The notes under the pieces are model-generated. The model did no database searches. It worked only from the letters and a program-made list of their open reading frames with translations, and was not told the DNA's origin. From NCBI GenBank assembly GCA_003152105.1, contig PLZJ01000003.1:70899-134898 (forward strand): 64,000 nt of DNA. Reading direction: 5' to 3'. This document shows positions 6,785 to 63,670 of the stretch, in pieces. Numbering within the stretch: the first letter of the stretch is position 1; each line of letters starts with the position of its first letter. The position numbers and the translations under genes are program-made. This DNA is from Candidatus Levyibacteriota bacterium. Lineage in GTDB: Bacteria > Patescibacteriota > Microgenomatia > Levybacterales > UBA12049.

Positions 6785-7049
6785 ATGCTTACCTATATAG
6801 TTAACAATACTTATGATATCTCGTCAATACAAAGAATAAAGCACGCTATAATTTGTTATTCTTCTCATCCTGTAGTATAATTCCGGAAGCTTTCGTTCAG
6901 GGTTAAATAAAAGCTATTTAGATTTTGAGCAAAAGCTAATTTGCACTTTAATAACTTCATTTGGAATTACCTTTTGCAGTGCATAGTGTGTGTCATTTCT
7001 GATACATAGTATGCGCTTGCAAAAGTGACATTTTAGAGAAAGGGAACTC

Positions 7050-7750: not shown

Positions 7751-7903
7751 ATTCCAAAAGGAGTAAGGTGCCAGGTTTGGTAGGGAAAGAGTATATCTTT
7801 TAAAGGAGGGGCGTAATGCGATAAGCATACACAACTATTTAAAAACTCAATTCCTACCAGACCAAATCCTACAACGAGACAAAAGTACGGTTTGTGCTGC
7901 TAC

Positions 7904-18248: not shown

Positions 18249-18545
18249 ATGAATAAATGTACAGCATCAGAATTAAAAATGTTAGGCGATTTCTGGACAC
18301 TTGCAATCATTCAAGCGCTTTCTGATGGGCAAAAACGATTTTGTGAACTTGAACGTGCCGTCAATGTATCTTCTCCAACAACGCTTGCAAACCGATTAAA
18401 AAAATTAGAAGTACAAGGCCTTATTCTAAAACAAAAAGAAACCGTTGATAAATTATCTGTGTCGTATGAGCTTTCTCCAAAAGGCTATGGTATTTTACCT
18501 GTTCTTGAACAAATTCACGTTTTTGCGCGTAAGTTCCTCTCATAA
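18249..18545 (+). CDS. HxlR-family winged-helix transcriptional regulator
   Basis: GDFWTLAIIQALSDGQKRFCELERAV...PTTLANRLKKLEVQGLI. Confidence 0.8.
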   Translation: MNKCTASELKMLGDFWTLAIIQALSDGQKRFCELERAVNVSSPTTLANRLKKLEVQGLILKQKETVDKLSVSYELSPKGYGILPVLEQIHVFARKFLS

Positions 18546-18554
18546 AGTATCCCT

Positions 18555-19690
18555 TTTTTATTTTAGTTTTCGTTTTTGTAGCATGTAGTTTCTGTTTGTG
18601 GGTTTGTTGTTGTTATTTACTTTTTGTGTGTGTAAGTCGGGATGGTGAATAAGAGAAGCGCAGGGCGCAAAGGTGCGTTGAAAGCACAAACTCTTACTCA
18701 CCAACCCGGGAGACTTACTAAAAACAATGAAAAAGACCCGTTTGGATCAAAAAGGTCTCAATAGAGGTGTTGACGATGTAATTGAACGACTCCGATCTTC
18801 TTGTATGAAGGGCAATAATGTGTGGCTGTCTAGGACCCGGCAAAAGCTGAGTGCATATGACATGTAGATGCCCCTTTGGTTACGTCGCGGATGTGAACCA
18901 CGATTATTTTTTGTGTAGCGATCGGAACTACTCGATTTTCTCAGACTGAGTCAGTTTAGGCGGTGGCCGAGCTATGCCAAAATGCAAACCTTTTCTTCTC
19001 CGTATAAACAGTGAATTTTGACGTGCATGTGTCATGCTGAAGCGAACTTACGCAGCAGCTCGAAAGGGATCGGTGGTTGTGACGTCTGCCATACAGGTAG
19101 CGCAGATTGCGTTTCGAACGAGTGCTCGTACAACAGTACTAACGTGTCTGCCCTTGACCAGCCCGAAAGATTCCAGAACATGGAAATATTTCGCAGGATA
19201 TGTCAGAGCTTCAGCACGTCGACCATTGCAGAGAAGATGAAGGACATATGTTGCCACATGTTCTCCTCGCTGCACAAGTCTATTGATCTTGGCATGAACT
19301 GCTTCGATCTGCTCTCTTGAATACGTACTCCCATCTTTTAACGTCACGCGTTCTTTTGCCACAGTGAATCCCCACATGATATGAATTTGACGGTGATTTA
19401 GATACTACGCTTGCAACTTTTCAGTGACTGTGTCTGTGAATTATTCGTTTAAACGTTCAATTTGTATTCCCTCTTTTCTTGAAAAATTTGTCATAGAAGA
19501 TGACTTTTTGCATATAAAATACTTCTATACAAAAAGTCACCTACTATGGTTTTTTCGCTATTGTTTTTAGTAATGTCAAAGTGCAATTAATTCTTTGTAT
19601 ACAAGCAAAACGGCTTTTGTTTTGCAGTACGCAGACAGTATAGCAAAAGTATATTTCATACTCAACTGTACAAATGGCGTACAATTGACA
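18555..19690. other. About 1.1-kb GC- and G/T-rich region with no credible host-like ORF, dense in hairpins; candidate structured noncoding RNA or degraded foreign insert
   Basis: Composition differs sharply from the flanks. An 86-nt imperfect hairpin lies at 18633-18718, built from GTAAGTC...ACTCACC...GACTTAC, with nested GCGCAGGGCGC and GTGCGTTGAAAGCAC hairpins. Confidence 0.35.
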
Positions 19691-19692
19691 GA

Positions 19693-20229
19693 ATGCGAAA
19701 AGATCGACATACTAAGACTATGCAAAAAATTACACATCATTTCAGTTCAGAAAGTAATAAAGTAATATTTTTTGCTCTTATTGTATTTTTACTTCTTGCC
19801 CTATATATGCTTTTAGTACTACTTTTTGATAGAACAAGTCCAGTTGGAAAAATGGGTGAGAAATTTGGCATCTTACCAATTACCCCAACATTTACTCCTG
19901 CACCAAGCGTTATACCCTCCAATGACAATTTAACAATAACAAATGCGCAGGATGGACAAACATTTTATGTTGTTGTTGGGTCAAATGTAGGACTTATTTT
20001 AGACGCAGATAAAACGTCCTCTTATGTAAACCTTGATAATAGGTCAGATGTGCTTGTTGCGCATGAAAAGCCATTTTTAGATTCCGTACATCAAAAACTT
20101 GAAGTAGTATATCACGCACAAAAAGCAGGAAAAGCTCGACTTCAATACTATATTACAACACCTTGTGGAATACCAGGATGTAGTGTCAAAACCTCACTCT
20201 TTCATGTGTATGTAGATGTAGTAAACTGA
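19693..20229 (+). CDS. Hypothetical secreted or membrane-anchored protein (178 aa), possibly a beta-sandwich inhibitor-like fold
   Basis: N-terminal TM anchor and a Pro-rich spacer. Weak resemblance to chagasin/I42-like domains. Confidence 0.45.
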   Translation: MRKDRHTKTMQKITHHFSSESNKVIFFALIVFLLLALYMLLVLLFDRTSPVGKMGEKFGILPITPTFTPAPSVIPSNDNLTITNAQDGQTFYVVVGSNVGLILDADKTSSYVNLDNRSDVLVAHEKPFLDSVHQKLEVVYHAQKAGKARLQYYITTPCGIPGCSVKTSLFHVYVDVVN

Positions 20230-24794: not shown

Positions 24795-25687
24795 ATTCAA
24801 GGGTGGATTTAAAAATGATAATGAGTTTGGTGAGAAAGTAAACGCGGATGCGTATAAGGGTGCAAGATGCACTAAGTAAAAATGAGAAAATTCCCACCAA
24901 ACTCTTCTTTCTACACATCTATGCTCCTCTTCTTTTTTTTGCCTTTGCAAAACCTTTTTTTATTCCAAATTGGAATGATGTTTGACAGTTGTCGTTTTTT
25001 GGTTATTGGTTTGGCTTAGGTGTTTGTGGTTGTGTTTGTTTGGTTTACTATGTAAACAGTGTTGATTTGGTCTTTTAATTGACAATTGTTGTATGTATGC
25101 AATACCTGTCTGTTTTTGTTTTGCTCTTCTTTTTTGATATGGCAGAATGCAGTTTTTTTGTTGATTTCAAAAAAAAAGGAAAGGAGAGGGGCGGTTCTCC
25201 TTTTTGCATGTCTGAACCTATCGAAGGGAGAAGAAGAAAGAAGAATCGATCCAGACCTGCATGCTTGCACAGCATTTTGCGTTTTGCGTGCAACGGACTG
25301 CGTGTGACACATTGGTATCTCAAGTTCGAGTTTCGAACGAGTGCATCAATGCATCTGGAATTGGAACATCCTTGGGAAGGATAGAGCTTGTCTTTGTAAC
25401 TTTCCGCCCCGTTTCGAAACTGTGATTGTCTTTTAATCCGTTAGAACTAAAAAACCAAGGATAGTAGATTTCCTCATCACATGCGTCGAATAAAGCAAAA
25501 GACTAGCAAAAGTAAAAACGAGCTTTACTTCTCCTGGCCTTTTGCTTAAGAGCAAAAAGTATCAAAATAAATGTAGAATAATTGTAGAAAGATTTTTAAT
25601 GTACAAATGCTTTTGCCTTTTGTACACAGCTGTTATGCACTATGACAAAAGCATCATAGTATAGCAAAACTGAGAGTAAAACGCAAT
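24795..25687. other. About 0.9-kb GC- and G/T-rich noncoding stretch at the left edge of the higher-GC block; the track ORFs here overlap in several frames and are judged spurious
   Basis: Hairpin at about 24838-24910 (TTTGGTGAGAA...TTCCCACCAAA) followed by a T-rich tract, a likely terminator for the M20 gene. G/T-rich run 25015-25075. 10-nt palindrome GTTTCGAAAC at 25413-25422. Confidence 0.3.
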
Positions 25688-26419
25688 CTACTGTGGGGAA
25701 ATGTATAACGCAGTTGAAGAGTCGTTGTTTGCAGTTATAATAACAACACATTCGTTTCTGGTTAAAAACGCTGCTTTATTTTTTGGATAGATCGTACCAT
25801 TTGTCATAAATCCTTTTTCAGAAACACTACTTGTTCTGATAAAAATTTCGTTTTGTTCTATATCTGAAATATACCCACCAGTTCCACTAATGCCCCCTTG
25901 CGGAATAGGATGAAGAAGCGTTGGTGGGAGAAAAAGAGCCCATCCAGGAGAAAGAGCATCTGAGCTAAGAAGAGAAGGATAAAGCATGCTGTTAACTTCG
26001 ATTATGTCAGAGGTTTTGTCACTACTACCAAGCTCTGATTTGGCAATTGACTGGAGTGTATCTGTTTTTTTCACTACATAGGTTGTTAAATAATCGTCTT
26101 TTGGCAAAATACCTACATTTTTACAAAGTAATGGTCCTGTTGCGCTCATTTTCTGAAGTGCGACTGCTTGTTTTTGATACACACCAATTTGCACTGCTCT
26201 CCCAATCATGTAGCCAATAAATCCAAACATATAGCCAGAAAGAAGTGCAACAAGAAGCACAAGAAGCATTCGTTCCAGATCAAATCGCTTTGAAATGAAC
26301 ACGTTTTTTTCACTTATCATTTTCTTATCCACATAGTTAGTATTGTATAGAAGAAGAAGTCTTGTCAAGAAATGTGGGAAAGATAGGGGATAAGCACATG
26401 TGATGTGAACGGTGTGCAA
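25688..26419 (-). CDS. LysM-domain membrane protein
   Basis: TM helix followed by the LysM motif YVVKKTDTLQSIAKSELGSS...IIEVN...L.PGWALFLP. The true start may be the internal Met at about 26320. Confidence 0.5.
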   Translation of the reverse strand: MHTVHITCAYPLSFPHFLTRLLLLYNTNYVDKKMISEKNVFISKRFDLERMLLVLLVALLSGYMFGFIGYMIGRAVQIGVYQKQAVALQKMSATGPLLCKNVGILPKDDYLTTYVVKKTDTLQSIAKSELGSSDKTSDIIEVNSMLYPSLLSSDALSPGWALFLPPTLLHPIPQGGISGTGGYISDIEQNEIFIRTSSVSEKGFMTNGTIYPKNKAAFLTRNECVVIITANNDSSTALYISPQ

Positions 26420-26455
26420 GAAGCACTCCTCTTATCCCCAAAGGGTCTTTCCAAG

Positions 26456-28366: not shown

Positions 28367-28572
28367 AAATGTTTATCTTTGGGTCATTATATAGATCAGT
28401 GTAACAAAATTCAATTATTGTCCTGTAGTACTTGCCATAGAATACGCTGTTTGCTATACTACCAAAGCTAAAATTGGCAACATACAACAAAAGCTGTTGT
28501 ACTTCTTGCTTTTTTGCATTTGCACATTTACAAGTTGCGGAAAATACATAAAACATTACAAGGAGAAAACGC

Positions 28573-28710
28573 ATGTTACTACTTATCGCTTTTGCTACTC
28601 AGATTTCCCATCACTCGCAGGCAGCTTCGCTATGGCAGATTTTGCTTGTTATGCTAGGACTCGGTTTAGGTATTCCAACTGCTGCCTTTTTGTTTGTCGA
28701 AACACTGTAG
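28573..28710 (+). CDS. Putative 45-aa membrane peptide
   Basis: AAGGAG, 8 nt, then ATG at 28573. Translation MLLLIAFATQISHHSQAASLWQILLVMLGLGLGIPTAAFLFVETL. Not in the ORF track. Confidence 0.3.
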   Translation: MLLLIAFATQISHHSQAASLWQILLVMLGLGLGIPTAAFLFVETL

Positions 28711-28764
28711 GAAGCTTCGAATCCAAATCGCTTAACAACTCAACTTTCATATTAGGAGTAAAAC

Positions 28765-28980
28765 GTGAAATCTATCGAATCTTTTTTTGCATCGCTCATC
28801 CTTGCACTTGCAATACTTGCACTCATATGTCTGGTCGTTGGATATGCATTCATCGTCGACTTTGGGTGGTATTTGTGGGGCATTCTCATTCTTGTGTATC
28901 CAGTCGTCTTTTTTGTTGTAGTTTTTTCAATGTTTTACATGGGAGTAACACATAAAAGAGAAGAAAGGAAACGACGATGA
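28765..28980 (+). CDS. Small two-TM membrane protein (71 aa), GTG start
   Basis: AGGAG at 28754-28758. Its TGA overlaps the next ATG (ATGA coupling). Confidence 0.45.
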   Translation: MKSIESFFASLILALAILALICLVVGYAFIVDFGWYLWGILILVYPVVFFVVVFSMFYMGVTHKREERKRR

Positions 28981-29264
28981 GACATCAATCGGTTGTTCAA
29001 GAGTATGACATAAGCACGTGGCGCTTTGGAAAGAATGAAGACGTTTTGCTTCGTCTGATTTTAGACCAGTTGTGCAGACACGACAACATCCACGTCGTTT
29101 GTTCAGTTGGCAGAAAGCTGTTTTACCTGAAATTTAGCTTTACGATTATCGTGAAGGGAGATTGGCTTGGACAAGTAGAGGGTGTTTGGCAAATGAAACA
29201 GTTTTGTAAAAAACATCACTTTAGTTTCGATGGACTTCAAAAAACCGACTACATGCATCTGTAA
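28977..29264 (+). CDS. Hypothetical protein (95 aa), translationally coupled to the upstream gene
   Basis: ATGA overlap at 28977-28980. Confidence 0.45.
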   Translation: MRHQSVVQEYDISTWRFGKNEDVLLRLILDQLCRHDNIHVVCSVGRKLFYLKFSFTIIVKGDWLGQVEGVWQMKQFCKKHHFSFDGLQKTDYMHL

Positions 29265-29457
29265 CGACTGTCTCGCTCAAGACCACTACTCCTTTTTTCA
29301 AATCCGCAACACATATGTGCTGTGAGGCAAGCTCTGTCGTCAGACTTCTCTTTCCCAAGAGAAAACTCTAAACGTCACCTTGCCCACACTCATTTCATTA
29401 TATTTGAGAGTAAATTAGTATATTGACACCTGTGAAAAATCCCCCTACTATTAATAT

Positions 29458-29796
29458 ATGCTAGAGTTATTAGTTGGAATACTAGGAATGCTTGCAGGTC
29501 TTTATTTACTCCTTCTTTCACCAGGAGATTTCTTAAACTACCTCATTTTCATATTAGGACTGCTCATTTTATGGCGCTGGTATAAAAGAAAATATACTGT
29601 CTCAAAAAAAGCAAAAAAAAGCAAAAGTTCATTTGACGCAACAATCACTGCAATAGGATTTACCATCGCAGTACTTGGTATTGCACTGCAATTTATTGGC
29701 ATCTTGCTTGGCTTTTCTGTTCCAATGGTTGTTACAGCCCTTATTATTCTTGTCGGGCTAATGACCTTTATTCTTGGTATCTCTACGCGAAAATAA
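29458..29796 (+). CDS. Membrane protein (112 aa) with a basic cytoplasmic loop
   Basis: Four hydrophobic helices and a KRKYTVSKKAKKSKSS loop. Confidence 0.5.
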   Translation: MLELLVGILGMLAGLYLLLLSPGDFLNYLIFILGLLILWRWYKRKYTVSKKAKKSKSSFDATITAIGFTIAVLGIALQFIGILLGFSVPMVVTALIILVGLMTFILGISTRK

Positions 29797-29846
29797 CTTC
29801 GGTTGTTCTTTTTTCAGTTTTTACCTGGTTTTTTTAGTGAGTAATG

Positions 29847-29966
29847 TTTTGTGTGTGAGGAAAAGGGTGTCGTAAGGGTAAGTAGAGGCTGAAAGGCCAA
29901 AAAAAGTCACTCATGTGACTAGTGTTGACCAAACAACATACTCACCCTCACGGCGCACTTACATAC
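29847..29966. repeat. About 120-nt structured G/T-rich element, second copy of the hairpin module seen at 18621-18720
   Basis: Begins TTTTGTGTGTG and ends ...ACTCACCCTCACGGCGCACTTAC, with an inner AGTCAC-TCAT-GTGACT hairpin. Lies between the convergent genes ending at 29796 and 29977. Confidence 0.35.
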
Positions 29967-29976
29967 AGAGATTGAA

Positions 29977-30174
29977 CTAGTGGGAAAGACGGAAGAGGCG
30001 ACGCAGAATCTCTCGTGACTCTTTTGGTTGTGTGATGAAAAGTGACGCTAGCAAATAGCCAATAATTGACAAAATTGCAACTGCGGCAAACATCATCACT
30101 GCGCTAAAGATATATACGACGAATTTGGACGCGACGGTTGTCATGTTAATGTCCTTGTGATCGAGTTGGTTCAA
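29977..30174 (-). CDS. Small membrane protein (65 aa)
   Basis: ORF track. One or two TM helices. Overlaps the upstream gene. Confidence 0.3.
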   Translation of the reverse strand: MNQLDHKDINMTTVASKFVVYIFSAVMMFAAVAILSIIGYLLASLFITQPKESREILRRLFRLSH

Positions 30175-30715
30175 TTGCGATACTTCGTGCCTTAATCATA
30201 CTGTTTGCATTTTCGAAGTGACGATCTGGCTCGAGTCCGTGAACGTATAGACAGAGTAAAAATCCATCTTCATTTCGAATAAACTCGAGCTTTGCGACGG
30301 TGCCGATTTGTATGACTTTTGATTCTCCTTTTTTTGTATTTGTGACGATTTCCCATGCAAGGTCGAGTAATTGATCTTGATCGCATACTTTCTCAAGCTG
30401 TGAAACCATTTCTTTCTGTACCTCTTGGAAGTGATCATACACCTGCATCAAGTTGACGAAGATGTCGACGATTCCTTCCGCAAGATAGAAGCTTTTGACG
30501 TGCTCAAACTCAGCGTTTGCCACAAGACCTGCAAGTGTGATAGTAACGTCTTCGCCCTTTGCATCATATACGTACGGTGCCGGAGAGTTGAGCCACTTTT
30601 TAACACTGCGTCTTGTGCGATGTCGTCGTTCGATAAACCGAAGAAGCTTCTTTCCTTCATCTGTACGGTACAAAACGTCTTTGATGTCATCAAACGTAAC
30701 ATTGGAAAAATCCAC
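30146..30715 (-). CDS. Hypothetical protein (189 aa), higher GC
   Basis: ORF track. No recognisable domain. Confidence 0.5.
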   Translation of the reverse strand: MDFSNVTFDDIKDVLYRTDEGKKLLRFIERRHRTRRSVKKWLNSPAPYVYDAKGEDVTITLAGLVANAEFEHVKSFYLAEGIVDIFVNLMQVYDHFQEVQKEMVSQLEKVCDQDQLLDLAWEIVTNTKKGESKVIQIGTVAKLEFIRNEDGFLLCLYVHGLEPDRHFENANSMIKARSIAIEPTRSQGH

Positions 30716-31251
30716 AAGCGCTCCATTTTATTGTATTTCCCAAAAGTTAGGGAAGAAAAAAGAATAGTATTACTCGTCTTTCTTCCCTAACCTTCCATTC
30801 TCAGTTGTAAACGTGCGAAAAAACTCAGAAAGAGACAATGGAAAAACAGCTATTGCAATTCGATGTCATTTTCTGTGTAGGAAGTATAGCACAAAATGCT
30901 CTGTAATCTCAACTATAGGGTGTTATTTTATACCTCAACAAAAGTCTTATAATAATTGACTTTACCTCTTGGGAGGCATATAATTCCCACACAGTCGTTG
31001 GTGACTTTCGTATACTACAGTACATAAGCTGTGCTTTTGTGACAAAAGATATCAACACTTACTCGCACATTAAAAACAAAACCTATATCCTAGAGTGTCA
31101 TTTGCTCTGGTTGCAGGAAAAGAGGGGAAAACGTTTTTCTCTTGTTTTTCTGCAATCACCAAGCAACACACATAAAAGGAGTACATATACAACAACGCGT
31201 CTGGCTATTTCGTTTCATTCTCATCTCACAACAAAAGGAAGGTAAGTGAAC

Positions 31252-32484
31252 ATGCTTTTTCGCGTCGCAACTATGGCTTTTTCGCTCTCGTTTCTCTCAA
31301 CTGCTGGTATCGCAAGCGCATCTTCACAGATGACAAATGCGCAGACCGTGCAGGCAAACATTCTCTCAGCACAACTGACGAAAACATCGTTTGTGGACAG
31401 CAACGGACAAAGCGTCTCACTTCCACAAGTGCAGCTTTGGACGTGGATCAATGGCCCCCAGGTTTCGTACCAAGTCATGGCATATGGTCCCATTCAAAAC
31501 GGATCGTTTGAGCCAAGTCTTTCATCGATTCCAGCAAGTCAAATCCAAAACGGCCAAACCAACTACATGGTAGTAGGTATTGCACCTGATGGCTATTCTG
31601 AACCGATTACTGACGGCATTGTCTATGCAGGAAGTGACCAAGCACAAACTGAGCAAATTGCAAATGAGCAATCAAGCTTTGCGAGAGTCACTGTCTCACA
31701 AGATGAGCTTTCAGCACTGTCTGGAACAACAGCGCAGTCGCAAGGAGCACATCCGCCGGACAACTGTATTGCCCCCCTAGGAGGGTATGTATACGTGTGG
31801 CTTCATAGTTACACGGATAAGTACACGGCAATTGGACAAGTGCATTCGATTCCAGGACTTCATAAAGTAATGCTCTCAATCCATCACGGCGCAACAGCGA
31901 CAGTGACAGCAGGTCTTTCAAAAGACTTTGGAGCAAACTTTAGTGTCGATGGAGAAGTCGGCGTTACCAACACACAGGAAAGCTCAATCAAGCGGCCCTT
32001 TGTAAATGTTGGTAACTATGCGCACACGCTCAAACTGCAGTACAAGTACGACCATCAGTCCCTTGAGTACCGCTGCTGGTACATTGACTATCATGGATAC
32101 AAGAAGAAGTGGTACGTCCACCATTTCCCTTGGGTTCATGTGGTAGCAAACAACTGGGACGGCGGCGGCTATATTGTCGGCAAAGACGTGTCCTACATGG
32201 ACAACTGGACGCCAAAGCAACTACGCAGTAGAACCGTAAGTCAACTCTGTTGTGGTGAAGAATACACCACCGGAGGACAAAAGGCGTTAACTGAAACTGG
32301 TGCTGTAACAGCATGGGGCTTCACCGCATCAGCTACGCTTGGCTTTTCAAACAGCACTGAACTTTCGATTCAAGCTGCAGACAGCGGAAGAGTGTGTCTT
32401 TACGATGCAGTCGAAAATCTTCCTGTCAATCTGGCAAGCGTGGTTGACGAAACAAAGTACTACGGCAATCACTGTCAACAATAA
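31252..32484 (+). CDS. Secreted hypothetical protein (about 410 aa) with a signal peptide
   Basis: Signal peptide MLFRVATMAFSLSFLSTAGIASASS. AAGGAAGG RBS. About 50 % GC. Cys-containing extracellular domain. Confidence 0.6.
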   Translation: MLFRVATMAFSLSFLSTAGIASASSQMTNAQTVQANILSAQLTKTSFVDSNGQSVSLPQVQLWTWINGPQVSYQVMAYGPIQNGSFEPSLSSIPASQIQNGQTNYMVVGIAPDGYSEPITDGIVYAGSDQAQTEQIANEQSSFARVTVSQDELSALSGTTAQSQGAHPPDNCIAPLGGYVYVWLHSYTDKYTAIGQVHSIPGLHKVMLSIHHGATATVTAGLSKDFGANFSVDGEVGVTNTQESSIKRPFVNVGNYAHTLKLQYKYDHQSLEYRCWYIDYHGYKKKWYVHHFPWVHVVANNWDGGGYIVGKDVSYMDNWTPKQLRSRTVSQLCCGEEYTTGGQKALTETGAVTAWGFTASATLGFSNSTELSIQAADSGRVCLYDAVENLPVNLASVVDETKYYGNHCQQ

Positions 32485-32495
32485 CTGGAGGTAAG

Positions 32496-33110
32496 ATGAG
32501 GGTTTTTAAGATCGTCGGCTCAGTCTTTGTTCTTGTCATTTTGGTAGGGTGCTTAACGGGCGCGATTCGAAGCGGTGCTGTTCATTCTTCCCATGCGTTC
32601 CTCAAACATACGTTTACCACAACAGTGAAAAACACTACTGTTGGGCAGACAATCAACTGGGGATCGGGAATTGAGAACACATCACCAAGCACTGTCATTA
32701 TGCAACAGGCACTGCTTGAAAACGATTCAAGTACTGATGCACCACTTGGCAGCGGCTCATTAGTTAACGAGGCAATAACAGATCACAACAGTGGTCTTGT
32801 TGGCGTTTGCGTCGGATGGCCTCCATGCAACGGGTACAAATGGGGAACAACACCTCATCCAAACAACTTTGCATTCAAAGGTAACACCATCGGCAATATC
32901 ATGCTCTCGTTTGTCATCCAAACACCCGGTGTCTACCAATTTGAACTGGTTCTCCAGTACAAACTCACCGGCATGCCAGGAGGATCGTTTGCAGACCCGT
33001 TTTTTGGCGCACCACTTGTGACAGAACACACACAACAGTTCCTAAACATATGCGTTTCCGAAAAAACACGCAAATGCAACGCGCTCCTTTCAACACTCCC
33101 AATACATTAG
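32496..33110 (+). CDS. Putative lipoprotein (204 aa)
   Basis: Lipobox-like LVGC after the signal helix. Adjacent to and co-oriented with the secreted protein. Confidence 0.55.
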   Translation: MRVFKIVGSVFVLVILVGCLTGAIRSGAVHSSHAFLKHTFTTTVKNTTVGQTINWGSGIENTSPSTVIMQQALLENDSSTDAPLGSGSLVNEAITDHNSGLVGVCVGWPPCNGYKWGTTPHPNNFAFKGNTIGNIMLSFVIQTPGVYQFELVLQYKLTGMPGGSFADPFFGAPLVTEHTQQFLNICVSEKTRKCNALLSTLPIH

Positions 33111-33270
33111 CCTATTAGGTTTTGTCGCGAGTCTAAGATGGGTCGGTTAAGTGATTAAATTCACGTATGCTAGTTCTACTAGTATATTTCCGACCCCTCT
33201 TATTCTCATCATTTTCCAAAACAACTTTATCTTTTTTAACAATCAAAAAATATGACAATTTTTTCTCTTC

Positions 33271-34741: not shown

Positions 34742-35683
34742 TTACTCTTTGTTTCCGCTATGAAATGCAGTGTGAACTTCTCGCAGTTGCTTATTGGTAA
34801 CGTGGGTATAAATTTGTGTTGTTGCAATATTTTTGTGCCCAAGCATTTCTTGCACTGAGCGCATATCTGCGCCATTTGATAAAAGATCTGTTGCAAAACT
34901 ATGACGCAAAGTATGTACAGTTGCATCAACTGGAATTCTGGCAAGACGGGTATATTTTTTGACAATTCGCTCAATTGTTCGAACTGTTAAGCGCATTTTT
35001 TCTCCATTATTTTCCTCAGAAAGTCTACCTGAATAGCGAATGAAAAGTGGCTTGTAATGATCTTCTCGCATTGAAACATACCGATCAATCCATTCTGCTG
35101 CGCGATCAGAGATAAATACAAGTCGGTGTTTTCGTCCTTTGCCAATAACACCAAATTCTCTTCTTTGTACGTTGATGTCTTGATGATTAAGCGACACAAG
35201 TTCTGATACACGAAGACCAGTTGAAAATAGCAGTTCTATAATTGTTCTGTCCCGAACACCTTCTTCTTTGCTCGTATCAACAGCAGTAAGTAAACGCTCT
35301 ACTTGTTCACGCTCCAAAAACTTAACTGATCTGCTTTCTGCTTTTGGCAAATCAATTTTTGATGGTTCAAGTGTCACATGATCATTTTTAATTAAATACC
35401 GAAGAAAAGACCGAAGCGCGATAATATAATAGTTTTGTGTAATACGCTTGAGTGTTAAATTATTTTGATCAACTCTGTTTGATAAGTACACACGAAATTT
35501 TCGGACATCCGAAAGAGTCAAATCTGCAACTTTTTTGCCAGGATAATTTTCCTCAAGCCACGCCGAGAAAACGAGTAAATAGTGACGGTAATCTCGAATA
35601 GTTAACTTTGAACAGTTTTTCTCGATTTCAAGATATTCTAAAAATTCGTTAATAAGAAGAACAAGAGCTGAAGGAGTTTCCAT
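34742..35683 (-). CDS. Tyrosine site-specific recombinase, XerC/XerD-like
   Basis: N-terminal SAM-like core-binding domain. Catalytic-region R...HxxR...Y pattern (HTLRHSFAT...TQIYTHV). Start placed at METPSAL. Confidence 0.85.
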   Translation of the reverse strand: METPSALVLLINEFLEYLEIEKNCSKLTIRDYRHYLLVFSAWLEENYPGKKVADLTLSDVRKFRVYLSNRVDQNNLTLKRITQNYYIIALRSFLRYLIKNDHVTLEPSKIDLPKAESRSVKFLEREQVERLLTAVDTSKEEGVRDRTIIELLFSTGLRVSELVSLNHQDINVQRREFGVIGKGRKHRLVFISDRAAEWIDRYVSMREDHYKPLFIRYSGRLSEENNGEKMRLTVRTIERIVKKYTRLARIPVDATVHTLRHSFATDLLSNGADMRSVQEMLGHKNIATTQIYTHVTNKQLREVHTAFHSGNKE

Positions 35684-35784
35684 GTAACAAGTATCTATAA
35701 ATATCGTTCTTTTGTCAAACAACACCTCTTACTACAAGCCTTTTTTCGTTGACAAAATACCTGTTTGTCTCGCATACTAAATAT

Positions 35785-61913: not shown

Positions 61914-62107
61914 ATAGAGTGAAAATAATACAGTATTAAAAACTATGCGTCAATAAAAATAGTTGATTTGGCAGTAGGGGGAAAGAAACAGTAGGTAGTA
62001 TATGCATGGCACGCATATGCATGTTTCTTTCTTTTTCATTGTTTCCAATGACCCTACTACCGTGTGCACCTCCTTTCATAGAATGATACTAAAAAACTGG
62101 GAAATCC

Positions 62108-62665
62108 TTATGTGGAACGCGCGATGATGACCAGTGCTTCATCCAACTTGGTTTCGACCAAAGCTGAAAGAGATGACTCTGCTCGAACTCGACAAACATT
62201 GCAAATTGCCAAATGCTCTAAAGCTCCATCAGGAAGTTGCGTGACGTCAGAAAGTGTAAGATCCTCCCAATCCTTTGTCGTATCCCACGGAAAATGTTCG
62301 AGCAGAATCTCGTACCAGCGATATTTGAAATGTTGCTCGCAAAGCAAAGTTGCCAGAATTCTCCATGCACCATGCGATACGACCGCAAAACACATAGCAC
62401 CAATGGCTTCGAGTTCGCTTTGATATAGCACTTCTGCCACATCCAAGACGACAATGAATGAAAGATTCTCAATTTTTGCCCGGACAGTTTCACTACTGTT
62501 TGAAAGCATGTTTATTTCCGGAATATGAGTCCTCTCAATCAGCAGCATTTCCTCGACTGGACAATCTGTCAAAGAGAAACGATTAGTATCGCTTAGAAAC
62601 TGGCTTGGAAACTTATCTACGTGCTTCTTGCTAAAGGTATCGACAAAATTGGTTCTCAACTCCAT
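62108..62665 (-). CDS. Hypothetical protein (185 aa), higher-GC operon gene 3
   Basis: About 45 % GC by eye. No recognisable motif. Confidence 0.5.
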   Translation of the reverse strand: MELRTNFVDTFSKKHVDKFPSQFLSDTNRFSLTDCPVEEMLLIERTHIPEINMLSNSSETVRAKIENLSFIVVLDVAEVLYQSELEAIGAMCFAVVSHGAWRILATLLCEQHFKYRWYEILLEHFPWDTTKDWEDLTLSDVTQLPDGALEHLAICNVCRVRAESSLSALVETKLDEALVIIARST

Positions 62666-62703
62666 GCTCCTATATTATTTAGTTAGTTGAATAAAGTCTC
62701 CTA

Positions 62704-63282
62704 CTATGCAGCTCCAGCCCCTTGGTAGATGACAAGATCTATATCGCTTGGGAAAGGACTTTCTTGTATGACATGGTCATTCCCCAAAAGCATACTATGA
62801 TTCTTGTTAACAAAGGCCGTTTGCTGACAGACAGCAAGCATATCACGTGCGAATTCGTAATTTTGCTTGGAACTTCGTCCGGCACATGATACGACAAATC
62901 CACCTTTCCCAACGATTGATCTTGCAAAGAAAGGATCTCCCATTTGGTATAGGTAAGAAGCTTCTTCCACAAAATCATCAGAAGAACAAAGTGTTCTCCA
63001 TGCTTTAAACGCTTCGCGTATGGCAATCTCTACGTAGTGAGTCGGCTCTTCCTTACTTACGCCAAAACGCCCCACAAAATAACATATATTCCGTACAAAA
63101 TACGGCCATAAGCCATCGCGTGGTAGCCCTGGAGAAAATATGGGAATTGCTGGATCTGTTACAACAACGACTAGTTCAGTCACAAGTGAGATTTGTCTGT
63201 TGGCGTTGGTATACATATCGACAACATATTTAAAATCTCTCTCGACATCTGATCTCGAAAGAAATGTACTGCCACTCATCAC
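62704..63282 (-). CDS. Hypothetical protein (192 aa), higher-GC operon gene 2
   Basis: About 44 % GC by eye. No recognisable motif. Confidence 0.5.
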   Translation of the reverse strand: MMSGSTFLSRSDVERDFKYVVDMYTNANRQISLVTELVVVVTDPAIPIFSPGLPRDGLWPYFVRNICYFVGRFGVSKEEPTHYVEIAIREAFKAWRTLCSSDDFVEEASYLYQMGDPFFARSIVGKGGFVVSCAGRSSKQNYEFARDMLAVCQQTAFVNKNHSMLLGNDHVIQESPFPSDIDLVIYQGAGAA

Positions 63283-63304
63283 TGCCTCCTTTTCCTATCT
63301 TTTG

Positions 63305-63670
63305 TTAAGCATCTGAAATGGGGAGTATATCCGAAACTCTAAGCGATGCCTTGTCTCCAATTGGAATAATCTCGTAATGTGAAGAAAATGCATCATCAAA
63401 TGCAAAGTGCCCACAGTCGAGTAAAACAAGCTGAGTAGTTGTAAAGTAACTATATTCTTGATCGAATTGATGATATCTCCATGTCCCTTCTTGCTCACGT
63501 ATTGCTACCCAATCAAGCATAAAGATGACAAAGATTTCAGCGAGTATAATTCTTCGAATCTGTGCTTGCAGTACCTTTCCAACTTCTTCAATTAGTAATT
63601 GTCCTCCCGATAGTTCTGGATTTTTGGTAATGAAGTCTGACCACGTAATCGTTCTTTTTGAAAGTTCCAT
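63305..63670 (-). CDS. Hypothetical protein (121 aa), higher-GC operon gene 1
   Basis: ORF track. 22-nt gap to the next gene. Confidence 0.5.
   Translation of the reverse strand: MELSKRTITWSDFITKNPELSGGQLLIEEVGKVLQAQIRRIILAEIFVIFMLDWVAIREQEGTWRYHQFDQEYSYFTTTQLVLLDCGHFAFDDAFSSHYEIIPIGDKASLRVSDILPISDA

Follow-up and report, generated by a model that had tools for sequence, protein, structure and literature searches.

A GC-rich interval in a Candidatus Levyibacteriota genome as a probable minus-strand orphan-gene cassette

The GC-rich island and its orphan gene

The interval 18555-19690 of the window (the 64,000-nt stretch of DNA that we analysed as a whole) is flanked by two host genes, hxlR on its left (Pfam HxlR, E = 7e-16) and a gene for a 178-aa membrane protein. 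A previous sequence-only reading had described it as a noncoding gap next to hxlR, about 50% GC and packed with hairpins, and had suggested a large structured RNA or a degraded foreign insert. The position of hxlR and the GC island are as it described, the figure of 50% being slightly overstated: GC is 46.7% in the island (18633-19380), 41.3% in the whole interval and 35.8% in the window, and the right-hand 310 nt (19381-19690) are ordinary AT-rich DNA with 31.6% GC. Among 750-nt windows, in which GC has a standard deviation of 3.3%, 2% are as GC-rich as the island. The junctions of the interval are the same in independent assemblies from at least four sequencing runs, which rules out an assembly chimera. 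Composition, the sole basis for this view, suggests that the island was acquired horizontally.

The label of noncoding did not hold, because a 109-aa open reading frame (ORF) on the minus strand (19048-19377; ATG start, TAA stop), whose foreign composition (48.5% GC) had already been noted, carries coding signals. This ORF, which is annotated as a gene in public assemblies, has GC of 0.60, 0.455 and 0.40 at the first, second and third codon positions (GC1>GC2>GC3). Its codon log-odds score of +0.067 is the sole positive value of the six frames (-0.14 to -0.25 in the others) and lies within the range of 0.04-0.19 obtained by leave-one-out for the other GC-islet ORFs. This GC order and a coding-type codon score are unique to the ORF frame. 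Single-sequence AF2 prediction gave a pLDDT of 74.1 and a pTM of 0.65 for the ORF versus 48.6 and 0.32 for the antisense ORF, confidence being high in one of five ORF models only, which is compact. An ORF of such length occurs in 5.8% of shuffles, a marginally unusual length (p ~0.06). Our data indicate that the 109-aa ORF behaves like a real gene.

The encoded protein is an orphan. No homologue turned up for it in searches of about 15 billion proteins or of 5.8 billion clusters, and its two matches among 1.84 billion representatives are both repeat-protein artefacts. Searches for a family or a fold gave no match, and defence-system, phage (PHROG) and NCBI family scans were all empty. A winged-helix DNA-binding (wHTH) identity, considered from a reading of the ORF, was dropped, neither sequence nor fold giving a match. 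Evidence for a pseudogenised foreign coding sequence, the other outcome envisaged at first, was also lacking: the ORF is without homologue, nine open-frame fragments had no Pfam match and tblastx of the region against the rest of the window was empty. The whole interval has no homologous locus in any collection searched; the other public contigs that carry these genes show 100% identity and come from the same strain. A search of GTDB genomes with the neighbouring FMN reductase found no relative; the best protein relative of this enzyme is just 59% identical.

Sister units in the window, described below, carry a Shine-Dalgarno (SD) sequence, and the 109-aa ORF has none. On the same strand 80 nt upstream lies an SD-like AAGAGGGAA with TTG and a 3-codon mini-frame behind it (19456-19476), where the SD and start codon of sister units are found; with no SD at the ORF and this motif ahead of a 3-codon frame, the gene may be crippled. 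Of the proposed degraded foreign insert, the foreign part agrees with the composition, and the degraded part holds in part: the ORF is intact and foldable-looking, and the 330 nt past it (18719-19047) are devoid of coding signal in every frame and match no protein family. Most of that stretch is a spacer or 3' UTR of ~44% GC (18749-19047, minus strand), non-coding and unstructured, with negative codon scores in six of six frames and fold z-scores of ~0 to +1.9.

Predicted promoter, leader and hairpins of the proposed unit

Upstream of the ORF, a consensus scan predicts a sigma-70-type promoter on the minus strand (19637-19665), with a -35 box TTGAGT (19665-19660), a 17-nt spacer and a TG-extended -10 box TATACT (19642-19637). 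It belongs to a conserved promoter-leader module (19557-19666, minus strand), recovered with nhmmer and a 7-sequence alignment, of which at least seven members lie in the window. The TGnTATACT box is aligned in all seven aligned members, and the conserved blocks of the family are ACAAwAGCTGTTTT and ATTTGCACnTTnACAACT. The leader also contains the block ATTGCACTTTGACATTACT (19587-19569) and a small hairpin, GCAAAAC-AAAAGCC-GTTTTGC (19625-19605), in which five of the seven pairs are changed on both sides across the family, so that it stays paired. A profile built from the seven leaders finds the 19557-19666 copy at E = 1e-14, by construction since this copy is within the alignment. With the leader of the 63.8-kb islet as nhmmer query, the top three non-self matches were the leaders of the other three GC-rich islets, in the right orientation, the 19557-19666 leader having E = 0.07. 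All four islets bear a family leader ahead of unrelated orphan ORFs, and their cargo proteins have no mutual similarity. These are homologous upstream regions ahead of non-homologous genes, the pattern that defines reused promoters, seen here in one genome only; the leader-bearing units lie dispersed across 7-64 kb, in either orientation.

The leader is followed by a long AT-rich stem-loop with 26-nt arms and a 5-nt loop (19492-19548, minus strand), detected by inverted-repeat search, which folds at -28.3 kcal/mol (z = -6.7) on the minus strand versus -21.0 kcal/mol (z = -3.4) on the plus strand. Hairpins in the equivalent position of the other leader-bearing units are each far more stable on the sense strand, by 7-17 kcal/mol for the long 5' hairpins of all four GC islets.

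The interval is not packed with hairpins. Sliding 150-nt folds compared with dinucleotide shuffles revealed two structured spots only, this stem-loop and an 86-nt hairpin, with significant z-scores confined to 18600-18749 and 19400-19650; at 18720-19400, z is ~ -2 to +2 and mostly positive, and for ~650 of the 750 GC-rich bases folding does not surpass that of shuffles. On the minus strand, 18555-19060 has z = -3.4, due wholly to the 86-nt hairpin, the remainder having z ~ 0 to +2. A further proposed stem, AGACC...GGTCT (18734-18758), is at chance level (z = -1.2 and -1.0). The Rfam covariance scan that had been suggested as a check gave zero matches at the gathering score over the entire 64-kb window (Rfam 15), including none to OLE, GOLLD, ROOL, HEARO, raiA, RNase P, 6S, SRP or riboswitch models. 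For 18400-19800 at E<=10, it gave just miRNA, snoRNA and RAGATH-associated noise far below threshold, the miRNA-precursor noise falling on the AT-rich hairpin. For the sister elements, at both the gathering score and permissive E-values, its only matches were miRNA noise, located on long hairpins. ARAGORN detected neither tRNA nor tmRNA. A group I or II intron remnant, also proposed, has no Rfam match either, and Pfam, NCBIfam and PHROG scans of the ORF and all open-frame fragments were empty, with no intron-encoded reverse transcriptase/maturase or homing endonuclease.

The 86-nt hairpin (18633-18718), which we call hairpin A, folds at exactly the coordinates first reported, with z = -4.8 on the plus strand and -7.7 on the minus strand. 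It is a Y-shaped three-way junction with two GC-rich apical hairpins and the foot GTAAGTC...GACTTAC, and the second most over-stable 100-nt minus-strand window in the entire 64 kb. A 24-nt block in it, TACTCACCAACCCGGGAGACTTAC (18695-18718), is common to a sibling 11 kb away, hairpin B (29858-29965), which carries the corresponding block TACTCACCnnCnCGGnnnACTTAC at an equal structural position and has the same 11-mer 5' flank, TTTTGTGTGTG. In 160 kb of searched strand, two sites match the hairpin part of the block of A ungapped at >=18/24, one of them being the equivalent site of B. Generic alignment of A with B is not significant (nhmmer E = 0.6; not the top Smith-Waterman score), so we claim their kinship from this positional coincidence only. 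A and B have identical orientation on the plus strand, and in both the conserved block stops precisely where GC-rich DNA starts. From the hxlR stop codon to hairpin A runs a tract (18546-18632) that is T/G-rich on the plus strand (A/C-rich and G-poor on the minus strand) and ends in TTTTGTGTGTG, with a similar tract 5' of B. It is possibly the rut-like tail of a minus transcript or the U-rich end of the hxlR mRNA.

Hairpin A does not resemble an intrinsic terminator, having no U tract: it is followed by TAAAAACA on the plus strand and ACACACAAAA on the minus strand. A terminator-like site precedes it on the minus strand (18726-18748; a 5-bp stem GATCC/GGGTC, then TTTTTCATTGTTTTT), which is weak evidence since the terminator scan found one site versus 1.6 expected by chance. 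Ordinary host genes in the window close with canonical GC-stem and U-tract terminators (at 21.9 kb, 52.7 kb and 59.1 kb).

Compound 3' hairpins trail the last ORF in units c1-c5, the core windows being more stable on the sense strand in each, by just 0.8 kcal/mol for hairpin D. Hairpins E and F have the apical hairpin GTGCAAGAWGCAC in common, and their kinship is claimed solely from it, generic alignment being not significant. Two further ideas were abandoned. A Y-shaped-hairpin descriptor on MFE structures was too permissive (169 loci at -20 kcal/mol) and was dropped as evidence of a structural family. Pairing of the 5' and 3' ends through a 14-nt inverted repeat gave duplex energies no better than shuffles in four of four units.

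Three features escaped the sequence-only reading: the bracketing of a putative transcription unit by the two hairpins, the repeated promoter-leader that forms its 5' part and the sibling of the 86-nt hairpin at a distance of 11 kb. The interval is, in our judgement, a lineage-specific orphan-gene cassette and not an OLE/GOLLD-type RNA. More precisely, we favour, with a probability of roughly 0.6, a small autonomous minus-strand transcription unit of foreign-looking composition, set between hxlR and the membrane-protein gene. From 5' to 3' on the minus strand, it would consist of the extended -10 promoter, the ~110-nt repeated leader, the long near-perfect stem-loop and the 109-aa gene, then ~330 nt of GC-rich non-coding DNA (probably what decay has left of acquired DNA, or else a long 3' UTR), the weak terminator-like site, the branched hairpin and the G-poor A/C tract. 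Through the shared promoter-leader, the cargo gene would come under the host's signals for transcription and regulation. RNA structure at either end of the message, the 5' stem-loop and the compound 3' hairpin, would guard it against exonucleases, and the 3' hairpin could stop or buffer transcription heading into the convergent hxlR. Transcription of the unit, and the minus strand as the one on which the 3' hairpin acts, are likewise what the predicted elements suggest.

Alternative readings of the interval

The interval could instead be a decaying, horizontally acquired fragment with no present function, its ORF being a truncated or inactive leftover and the 330 nt past it a dead gene. Foreign composition, the ORF without SD, the leader's SD-like motif now ahead of a 3-codon frame and a GC-rich yet non-coding and unstructured 18719-19047 are all consistent with this, as is a sister unit (leader 25686-25596, hairpin E) whose gene seems to be lost altogether. 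We nevertheless hold it to be rather unlikely, the ORF being unbroken through its 109 codons, with coding statistics and one confident, compact AF2 model, the promoter, leader and both hairpins being intact, and frameshifted protein homology being detected in no frame.

Alternatively, hairpin A could lie outside the cassette, as a stand-alone REP-like intergenic repeat or as the 3' structure of the plus-strand hxlR message. A stands 88 nt past the hxlR stop and B 62 nt past another plus-strand gene, in the same plus orientation, and the weak terminator-like site of the minus unit comes before the hairpin. The strand of the hairpin is ambiguous: the core of A is 3.6 kcal/mol more stable on the minus strand, a 140-nt window favours the plus strand, and the sense-strand preference of both A and B flips once 20-40 nt of flank are added, each then folding slightly better on the plus strand. 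The core preference argues against a hairpin outside the cassette, and so do the compound hairpins on the sense strand after the last ORF of other leader-bearing units, the canonical terminators that host genes in the window use and the missing U tract after A on both strands. Such a hairpin is, in our view, an unlikely explanation.

The unit could also be a mobile gene cassette of an undescribed kind, with the hairpin or the ...ACTTAC block as recombination or insertion site and a promoter-leader that travels with unrelated cargo. Several observations point this way: unrelated, raised-GC orphan cargos lie between homologous non-coding modules; the conserved block of A and B ends exactly at the start of GC-rich DNA; and A and B share their orientation. 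A perfect 14-nt inverted repeat (18715-18728 / 19560-19573) brackets the unit, with a back-of-envelope chance expectation of ~0.02-0.03. There is also a precedent, promoter reuse ahead of non-homologous genes being documented in prokaryotes (PMC3575422). Against mobility, the bases flanking the inverted repeat are not duplicated as a target site would be, and the repeat has no second copy in the window and nothing similar around sibling B. No transposase family match was found and no dedicated recombinase or transposase lies nearby. The window has a single tyrosine recombinase (34742-35725), a housekeeping Xer conserved in Patescibacteria, which shares 75-79% identity with proteins of Levybacteria, Microgenomates and Saccharimonadales. 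A XerA model also exceeded its cut-off on this protein, and the archaeal host considered for that reason was rejected in view of those identities. The integron attC consensus R''/R' (RYYYAAC / GTTRRRY), read from the sequence, is absent at both ends of hairpin A on both strands, and other assemblies hold no empty-site allele. Nor did we find a copy in any other genome, metagenome or viral contig searched. The 24-nt block pattern gave 5, 13 and 0 matches in the genome, metagenome and viral collections, all coding and without hairpin or TGTGTG flank; the leader pattern gave 0 matches in viral contigs; and phage and plasmid DNA yielded nothing besides one 32-nt chance match. The Xer-linked loci of three relatives (55 kb) contain no block, leader or comparable hairpin family. 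Mobility of this kind is improbable on these grounds.

That the whole island is a large structured RNA, OLE/GOLLD/ROOL-like or of a new class, with the ORF a chance frame, is very improbable and already largely refuted: it could appeal to GC enrichment in an AT-rich genome (reportedly a classic structured-RNA sign, as in the 2002 screen of Klein, Misulovin and Eddy), to the fold of 18555-19060 with its z of -3.4 and to an orphan ORF without SD of a length reached in about 6% of shuffles, but Rfam has no match at any useful threshold, that z comes from the 86-nt hairpin, the ORF fills almost half of the island with coding-type statistics, the AF2 contrast between sense and antisense frames points to a protein, and the window's other three GC islets plainly code for proteins and are laid out in the same way.

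Known systems and a possible cassette family

Large bacterial noncoding RNAs (OLE, GOLLD, ROOL, HEARO, raiA) resemble the island in being GC-rich, seemingly intergenic stretches of AT-rich genomes; the island differs in having no covariance-model match, mostly no excess structure and a coding ORF at its centre. An "intergenic" island of high GC need not be a structured RNA even where the genome is AT-rich; this one appears to encode an orphan protein on a message with structured ends. The pattern beyond it could be of greater consequence: several unrelated, raised-GC orphan genes share one conserved promoter-leader and end in compound hairpins. The evidence base for this pattern is one genome. 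It suggests how a genome-reduced, episymbiotic bacterium plugs new genes into its own expression system. Mobile elements are thought scarce in the Candidate Phyla Radiation, and if the modules are mobile or recombinogenic they would represent a new route of gene capture there. As a long shot, the units might form an undescribed family of promoter-bearing cassettes, in which unrelated orphan genes of recent acquisition would be captured between the conserved promoter-leader-hairpin module and the branched 3' hairpin, with the conserved hairpin foot (…CnCGGnnnACTTAC) as the joining site for new DNA.

Phage morons, in the work of Hendrix and colleagues, are reported to be autonomous units, each with promoter, gene and terminator, that deviate in base composition and are inserted among resident genes. 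The unit shares with them a single small gene of unknown cargo function, its own promoter-like site and end structure, a GC content off that of its neighbours and a place wedged between two unrelated resident genes. It differs in lacking a prophage context (PHROG scan empty, no phage DNA match), in ending with a branched hairpin without U tract and a weak or non-canonical terminator site, and in having a repeated host-genome module as promoter-leader.

Integron attC cassettes likewise combine unrelated, mostly orphan ORFs, and after each ORF comes an imperfect palindrome of 60-140 nt, sometimes branched and better conserved at its base than at its top. Here the R''/R' sites (RYYYAAC...GTTRRRY) are absent, each cassette has its own promoter, the units are scattered in both orientations and hence form no tandem array, and the nearby recombinase is the housekeeping Xer and not an integron integrase. 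The proposed family would be functionally analogous to attC cassettes while dispersed, self-expressed and independent of an integron integrase.

The likeness to reused or mobile promoters (PMC3575422) lies in the at least seven homologous promoter-leaders found in 64 kb ahead of unrelated genes. In contrast with these, conservation here runs ~80 nt into the transcribed leader, and a long hairpin, conserved in position and variable in sequence, comes after it; leader identity is ~50-70%, no associated transposable element was seen, and the family is known within one genome. With IS and MITE elements, the unit shares the perfect 14-nt inverted repeat and lacks the target-site duplication, further copies and transposase. 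REP and REPIN palindromes are repeated GC-rich intergenic hairpins at gene ends with conservation of the flanks at the stem foot, and A and B resemble them in this; here only two copies are related in sequence, and they form three- or four-way junctions rather than simple hairpins.

A GC-rich region with a probable orphan gene

The region at 18555-19690 holds a minus-strand unit (c1), one of several small putative transcription units that are built alike. It lies between hxlR (18249-18545, plus strand; Pfam HxlR, E = 7e-16), whose divergent partner is an FMN reductase gene, and a plus-strand 178-aa gene without a family match (19693-20229). As the sequence-only reading had noted, it contains a GC-rich stretch in an AT-richer window: the core at 18633-19380 has 46.7% GC against a window mean of 35.8% (standard deviation 3.3% in 750-nt windows, only 2% of which reach the level of the core), and the right-hand 310 nt of the interval are ordinary AT-rich DNA. 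The island is not a chimera, because at least four other runs, assembled independently, show the same junctions at 100% identity, hence with no sequence variation. The window comes from the 1.14-Mb metagenomic scaffold WOOD18-1_SAMN07125042. Searchable collections yielded no closer relative (the best non-self match of the neighbouring FMN reductase was 59%). Each protein that was looked up stood alone in its cluster among 15 billion collected sequences, indicating that the lineage is poorly sampled.

The region had been described as noncoding and packed with hairpins, possibly a large structured RNA. Sliding 150-nt folds compared with dinucleotide shuffles revealed only two discrete structured elements: hairpin A (18633-18718; z = –4.8 on the plus and –7.7 on the minus strand), which branches as a three-way junction, carries two GC-rich apical hairpins and lies exactly where the sequence-only reading had placed it, and an AT-rich hairpin with 26-nt arms (19492-19548; z = –3.4 on plus, –6.7 on minus). 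The DNA between them showed no more folding than random sequence, and in most places marginally less, a z of –3.4 for the minus strand of 18555-19060 being due to hairpin A alone, and the proposed AGACC/GGTCT stem was not significant. Rfam 15 gave no match at gathering score anywhere in the 64-kb window, which also lacks tRNA and tmRNA genes, and at E ≤ 10 the region returned just miRNA-precursor noise on the AT-rich hairpin. With two discrete hairpins, no Rfam match and an ORF with coding signals, a large structured RNA was rejected as very unlikely.

That ORF, of 109 aa on the minus strand (19377-19048) and an annotated gene in public assemblies, looks like a genuine gene, albeit an orphan, as judged from codon statistics and structure prediction. 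Its GC content falls from the first to the third codon position (0.60/0.455/0.40), with the mirror image seen in the plus-strand ORF that overlaps it. Under a codon model trained on the window's remaining GC-rich ORFs, its frame was the only positive one of six (+0.067 versus –0.14 to –0.25), inside the 0.04-0.19 range of the training ORFs in leave-one-out tests. AlphaFold2 without an alignment reached pLDDT 74.1 and pTM 0.65 (core 80-88), in only one of five models, versus 48.6 and 0.32 for the antisense 100-aa control ORF. Length by itself is weak evidence, being attained in 5.8% of shuffles. No homologue was found among 5.8 billion clusters, no match in Pfam, PHROG, PADLOC, NCBIfam or PDB sequences, and no Foldseek match of the model in PDB or BFVD. 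An exhaustive HMMER search of 1.84 billion representatives matched only two long tandem-repeat proteins (P0127 and P0128, E ~1e-10), which were rejected as homologues: the score is an artefact of adding up 7-9 weak partial hits within residues 7-51.

A putative promoter-leader shared by unrelated orphan genes

The window has four GC-rich islets, at 18.6-19.4, 29.9-30.7, 31.2-33.1 and 62.1-63.7 kb. The three others (43-48% GC) carry orphan ORFs of 189 and 65 aa (29977-30715, minus strand), 412 and 204 aa (31246-33110, plus) and 121, 192 and 185 aa (62108-63670, minus). None of these has a match in Pfam, PHROG, PADLOC or NCBIfam, and the proteins of all four islets lack a family assignment and are mutually unrelated. 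In the 412-aa and 204-aa proteins the N-terminus resembles a signal peptide.

When the leader of the fourth islet was used as an nhmmer query against 160 kb, the top three non-self matches (E = 0.009, 0.035 and 0.074) fell on the leaders of the remaining islets, all correctly oriented, and the next matches lay upstream of three more small orphan genes. The seven leaders can be aligned from –35 to about +80. That of c1 (19666-19557, minus strand) has a predicted TTGAGT-17-TATACT promoter that a consensus scan had already marked. The other six, likewise modules of ~110 nt placed 5' of unrelated small orphan genes, are at 6851-6965 (plus), 27745-27633 (minus), 28431-28546 (plus), 30913-30792 (minus), 30976-31082 (plus) and 63866-63749 (minus); 25686-25596 (minus) is a possible further member. 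They share a TG-extended –10 box (TGnTATACT), the block ATTTGCACnTTnACAACT and a small hairpin, ACAAwAGCTGTTTT, in which five of seven pairs have changes on both sides. Rfam does not contain the family, and searches of three relatives and of viral contigs did not detect it.

A long near-perfect hairpin of non-conserved sequence stands in every unit about 80 nt past the –10 box; in c1 this is the AT-rich hairpin at 19492-19548. In all four islets the strand that is sense for the downstream ORFs folds it more stably, by 7-17 kcal/mol. Such a bias would be expected from G-U pairing at the RNA level, or from C-to-T drift linked to transcription under structural constraint.

Compound hairpins at the 3' ends

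In each of the leader-bearing units examined, the final ORF is followed by a compound hairpin of 80-110 nt without a U tract: A (18633-18718), B (29858-29965), C (33129-33207), D (61969-62062), one after unit c5 (7774-7863), and E (24823-24905), where the preceding unit seems to have lost its gene. Ordinary host genes of the window, unlike the orphan units, end in canonical terminators with a GC stem and a U tract (21.9, 52.73-52.78 and 59.05-59.09 kb; e.g. CCCCGTAGAG...CTCTGCGGGGTTTTTT). Core windows favoured the sense strand in each compound hairpin (by 3.6, 4.2, 6.3 and 0.8 kcal/mol in A-D), the preference reversing in A and B, which lie between convergent units, once flanks were included.

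Among over-stable 100-nt windows on the minus strand, 29861-29960 ranked first and hairpin A second. Hairpin B (flank 29796-29857) is a four-way junction in the same orientation as A, and each lies between the end of a plus-strand gene and a minus-strand GC-rich orphan gene (ORFs 28573-29796 and 30715-29977 for B). They share the 11-mer TTTTGTGTGTG at the 5' foot, the 24-nt block TACTCACCnnCnCGGnnnACTTAC, which in both is the 3' strand of the basal stems, and an 8-bp stem, GGTGAGTA/TAyTyACC in minus-strand reading, whose pairing is kept with G-C to G-U changes at differing positions. Generic alignment did not find the similarity significant (nhmmer E = 0.6). The non-repetitive hairpin part of A had only two ungapped matches of at least 18/24 in 160 kb of searched strand; one of them falls precisely on the structurally equivalent site of B, and on this positional coincidence we accept A and B as kin. 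Searches of GTDB genomes, JGI metagenomes and IMG/VR gave no occurrence of the 24-nt block in a meaningful context.

A model for the units and its alternatives

A unifying plan for the units is a common promoter-leader, a 5' stem-loop, cargo genes of raised GC that are mutually unrelated orphans, and a compound 3' hairpin. The earlier suggestion of foreign DNA is accepted with a refinement, as a probable orphan gene unit with repeated non-coding modules. These modules, supported from one genome only, are its sole unusual aspect. The promoter-leader would give acquired genes host transcription and regulatory signals, the terminal structures would shield the message, and the 3' structure would insulate the convergent neighbour gene. 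The unit would work most like a combination of the phage 'moron' and a reused promoter (PMC3575422); with integron cassettes it shares an orphan cargo that has a branched palindrome behind it.

An attractive but unlikely alternative is that the unit is a mobile cassette, as the conserved block stops exactly where the GC content changes and TTACTAAAAACAAT, a perfect 14-nt inverted repeat (18715-18728 and 19560-19573), flanks 859 bp including the island; however, the unit has no recombinase of its own, no target duplication, no second copy and no presence/absence evidence. The repeat itself has no further copy in the window, and as an RNA duplex it pairs with no more favourable energy than shuffled sequences do.

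Decay of c1 is a less likely reading, to which three features point. The SD-like AAGAGGGAA at 19456-19476 (minus strand), in the place taken by the SD and start codon of sister units, now precedes a TTG and a 3-codon frame; the 109-aa ORF starts 80 nt downstream of it and has no SD of its own. Likewise, the 330 nt 3' of the ORF (18719-19047) appear to be a dead spacer, with no positive coding frame, no excess structure and no family match for any open fragment. As an attC/integron cassette, an IS/MITE element, an intron or any Rfam family the unit fails every defining test, as does its 3' hairpin as an intrinsic terminator.

Apart from the orphan units, a Xer-type tyrosine recombinase is encoded at 34742-35725 (minus strand), 75-79% identical to Levybacteria, Microgenomates and Saccharimonadales proteins, which places the host among the Patescibacteria (CPR); its neighbours here, F420 ligase, DUF4112 and GH18, differ from the neighbourhood conserved in relatives, MFS-LGT-RluA-LytR-YebC...Xer-SIMPL. 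The Y-shaped hairpins E and F (26377-26447) carry a near-identical apical hairpin, GTGCAAGAWGCAC, present in two exact copies in the window. On the minus strand 5' of E lie a leader-like sequence and a hairpin with 24-nt arms (25493-25547), with no called gene between these and E, and this may be a dead or an RNA-only unit.
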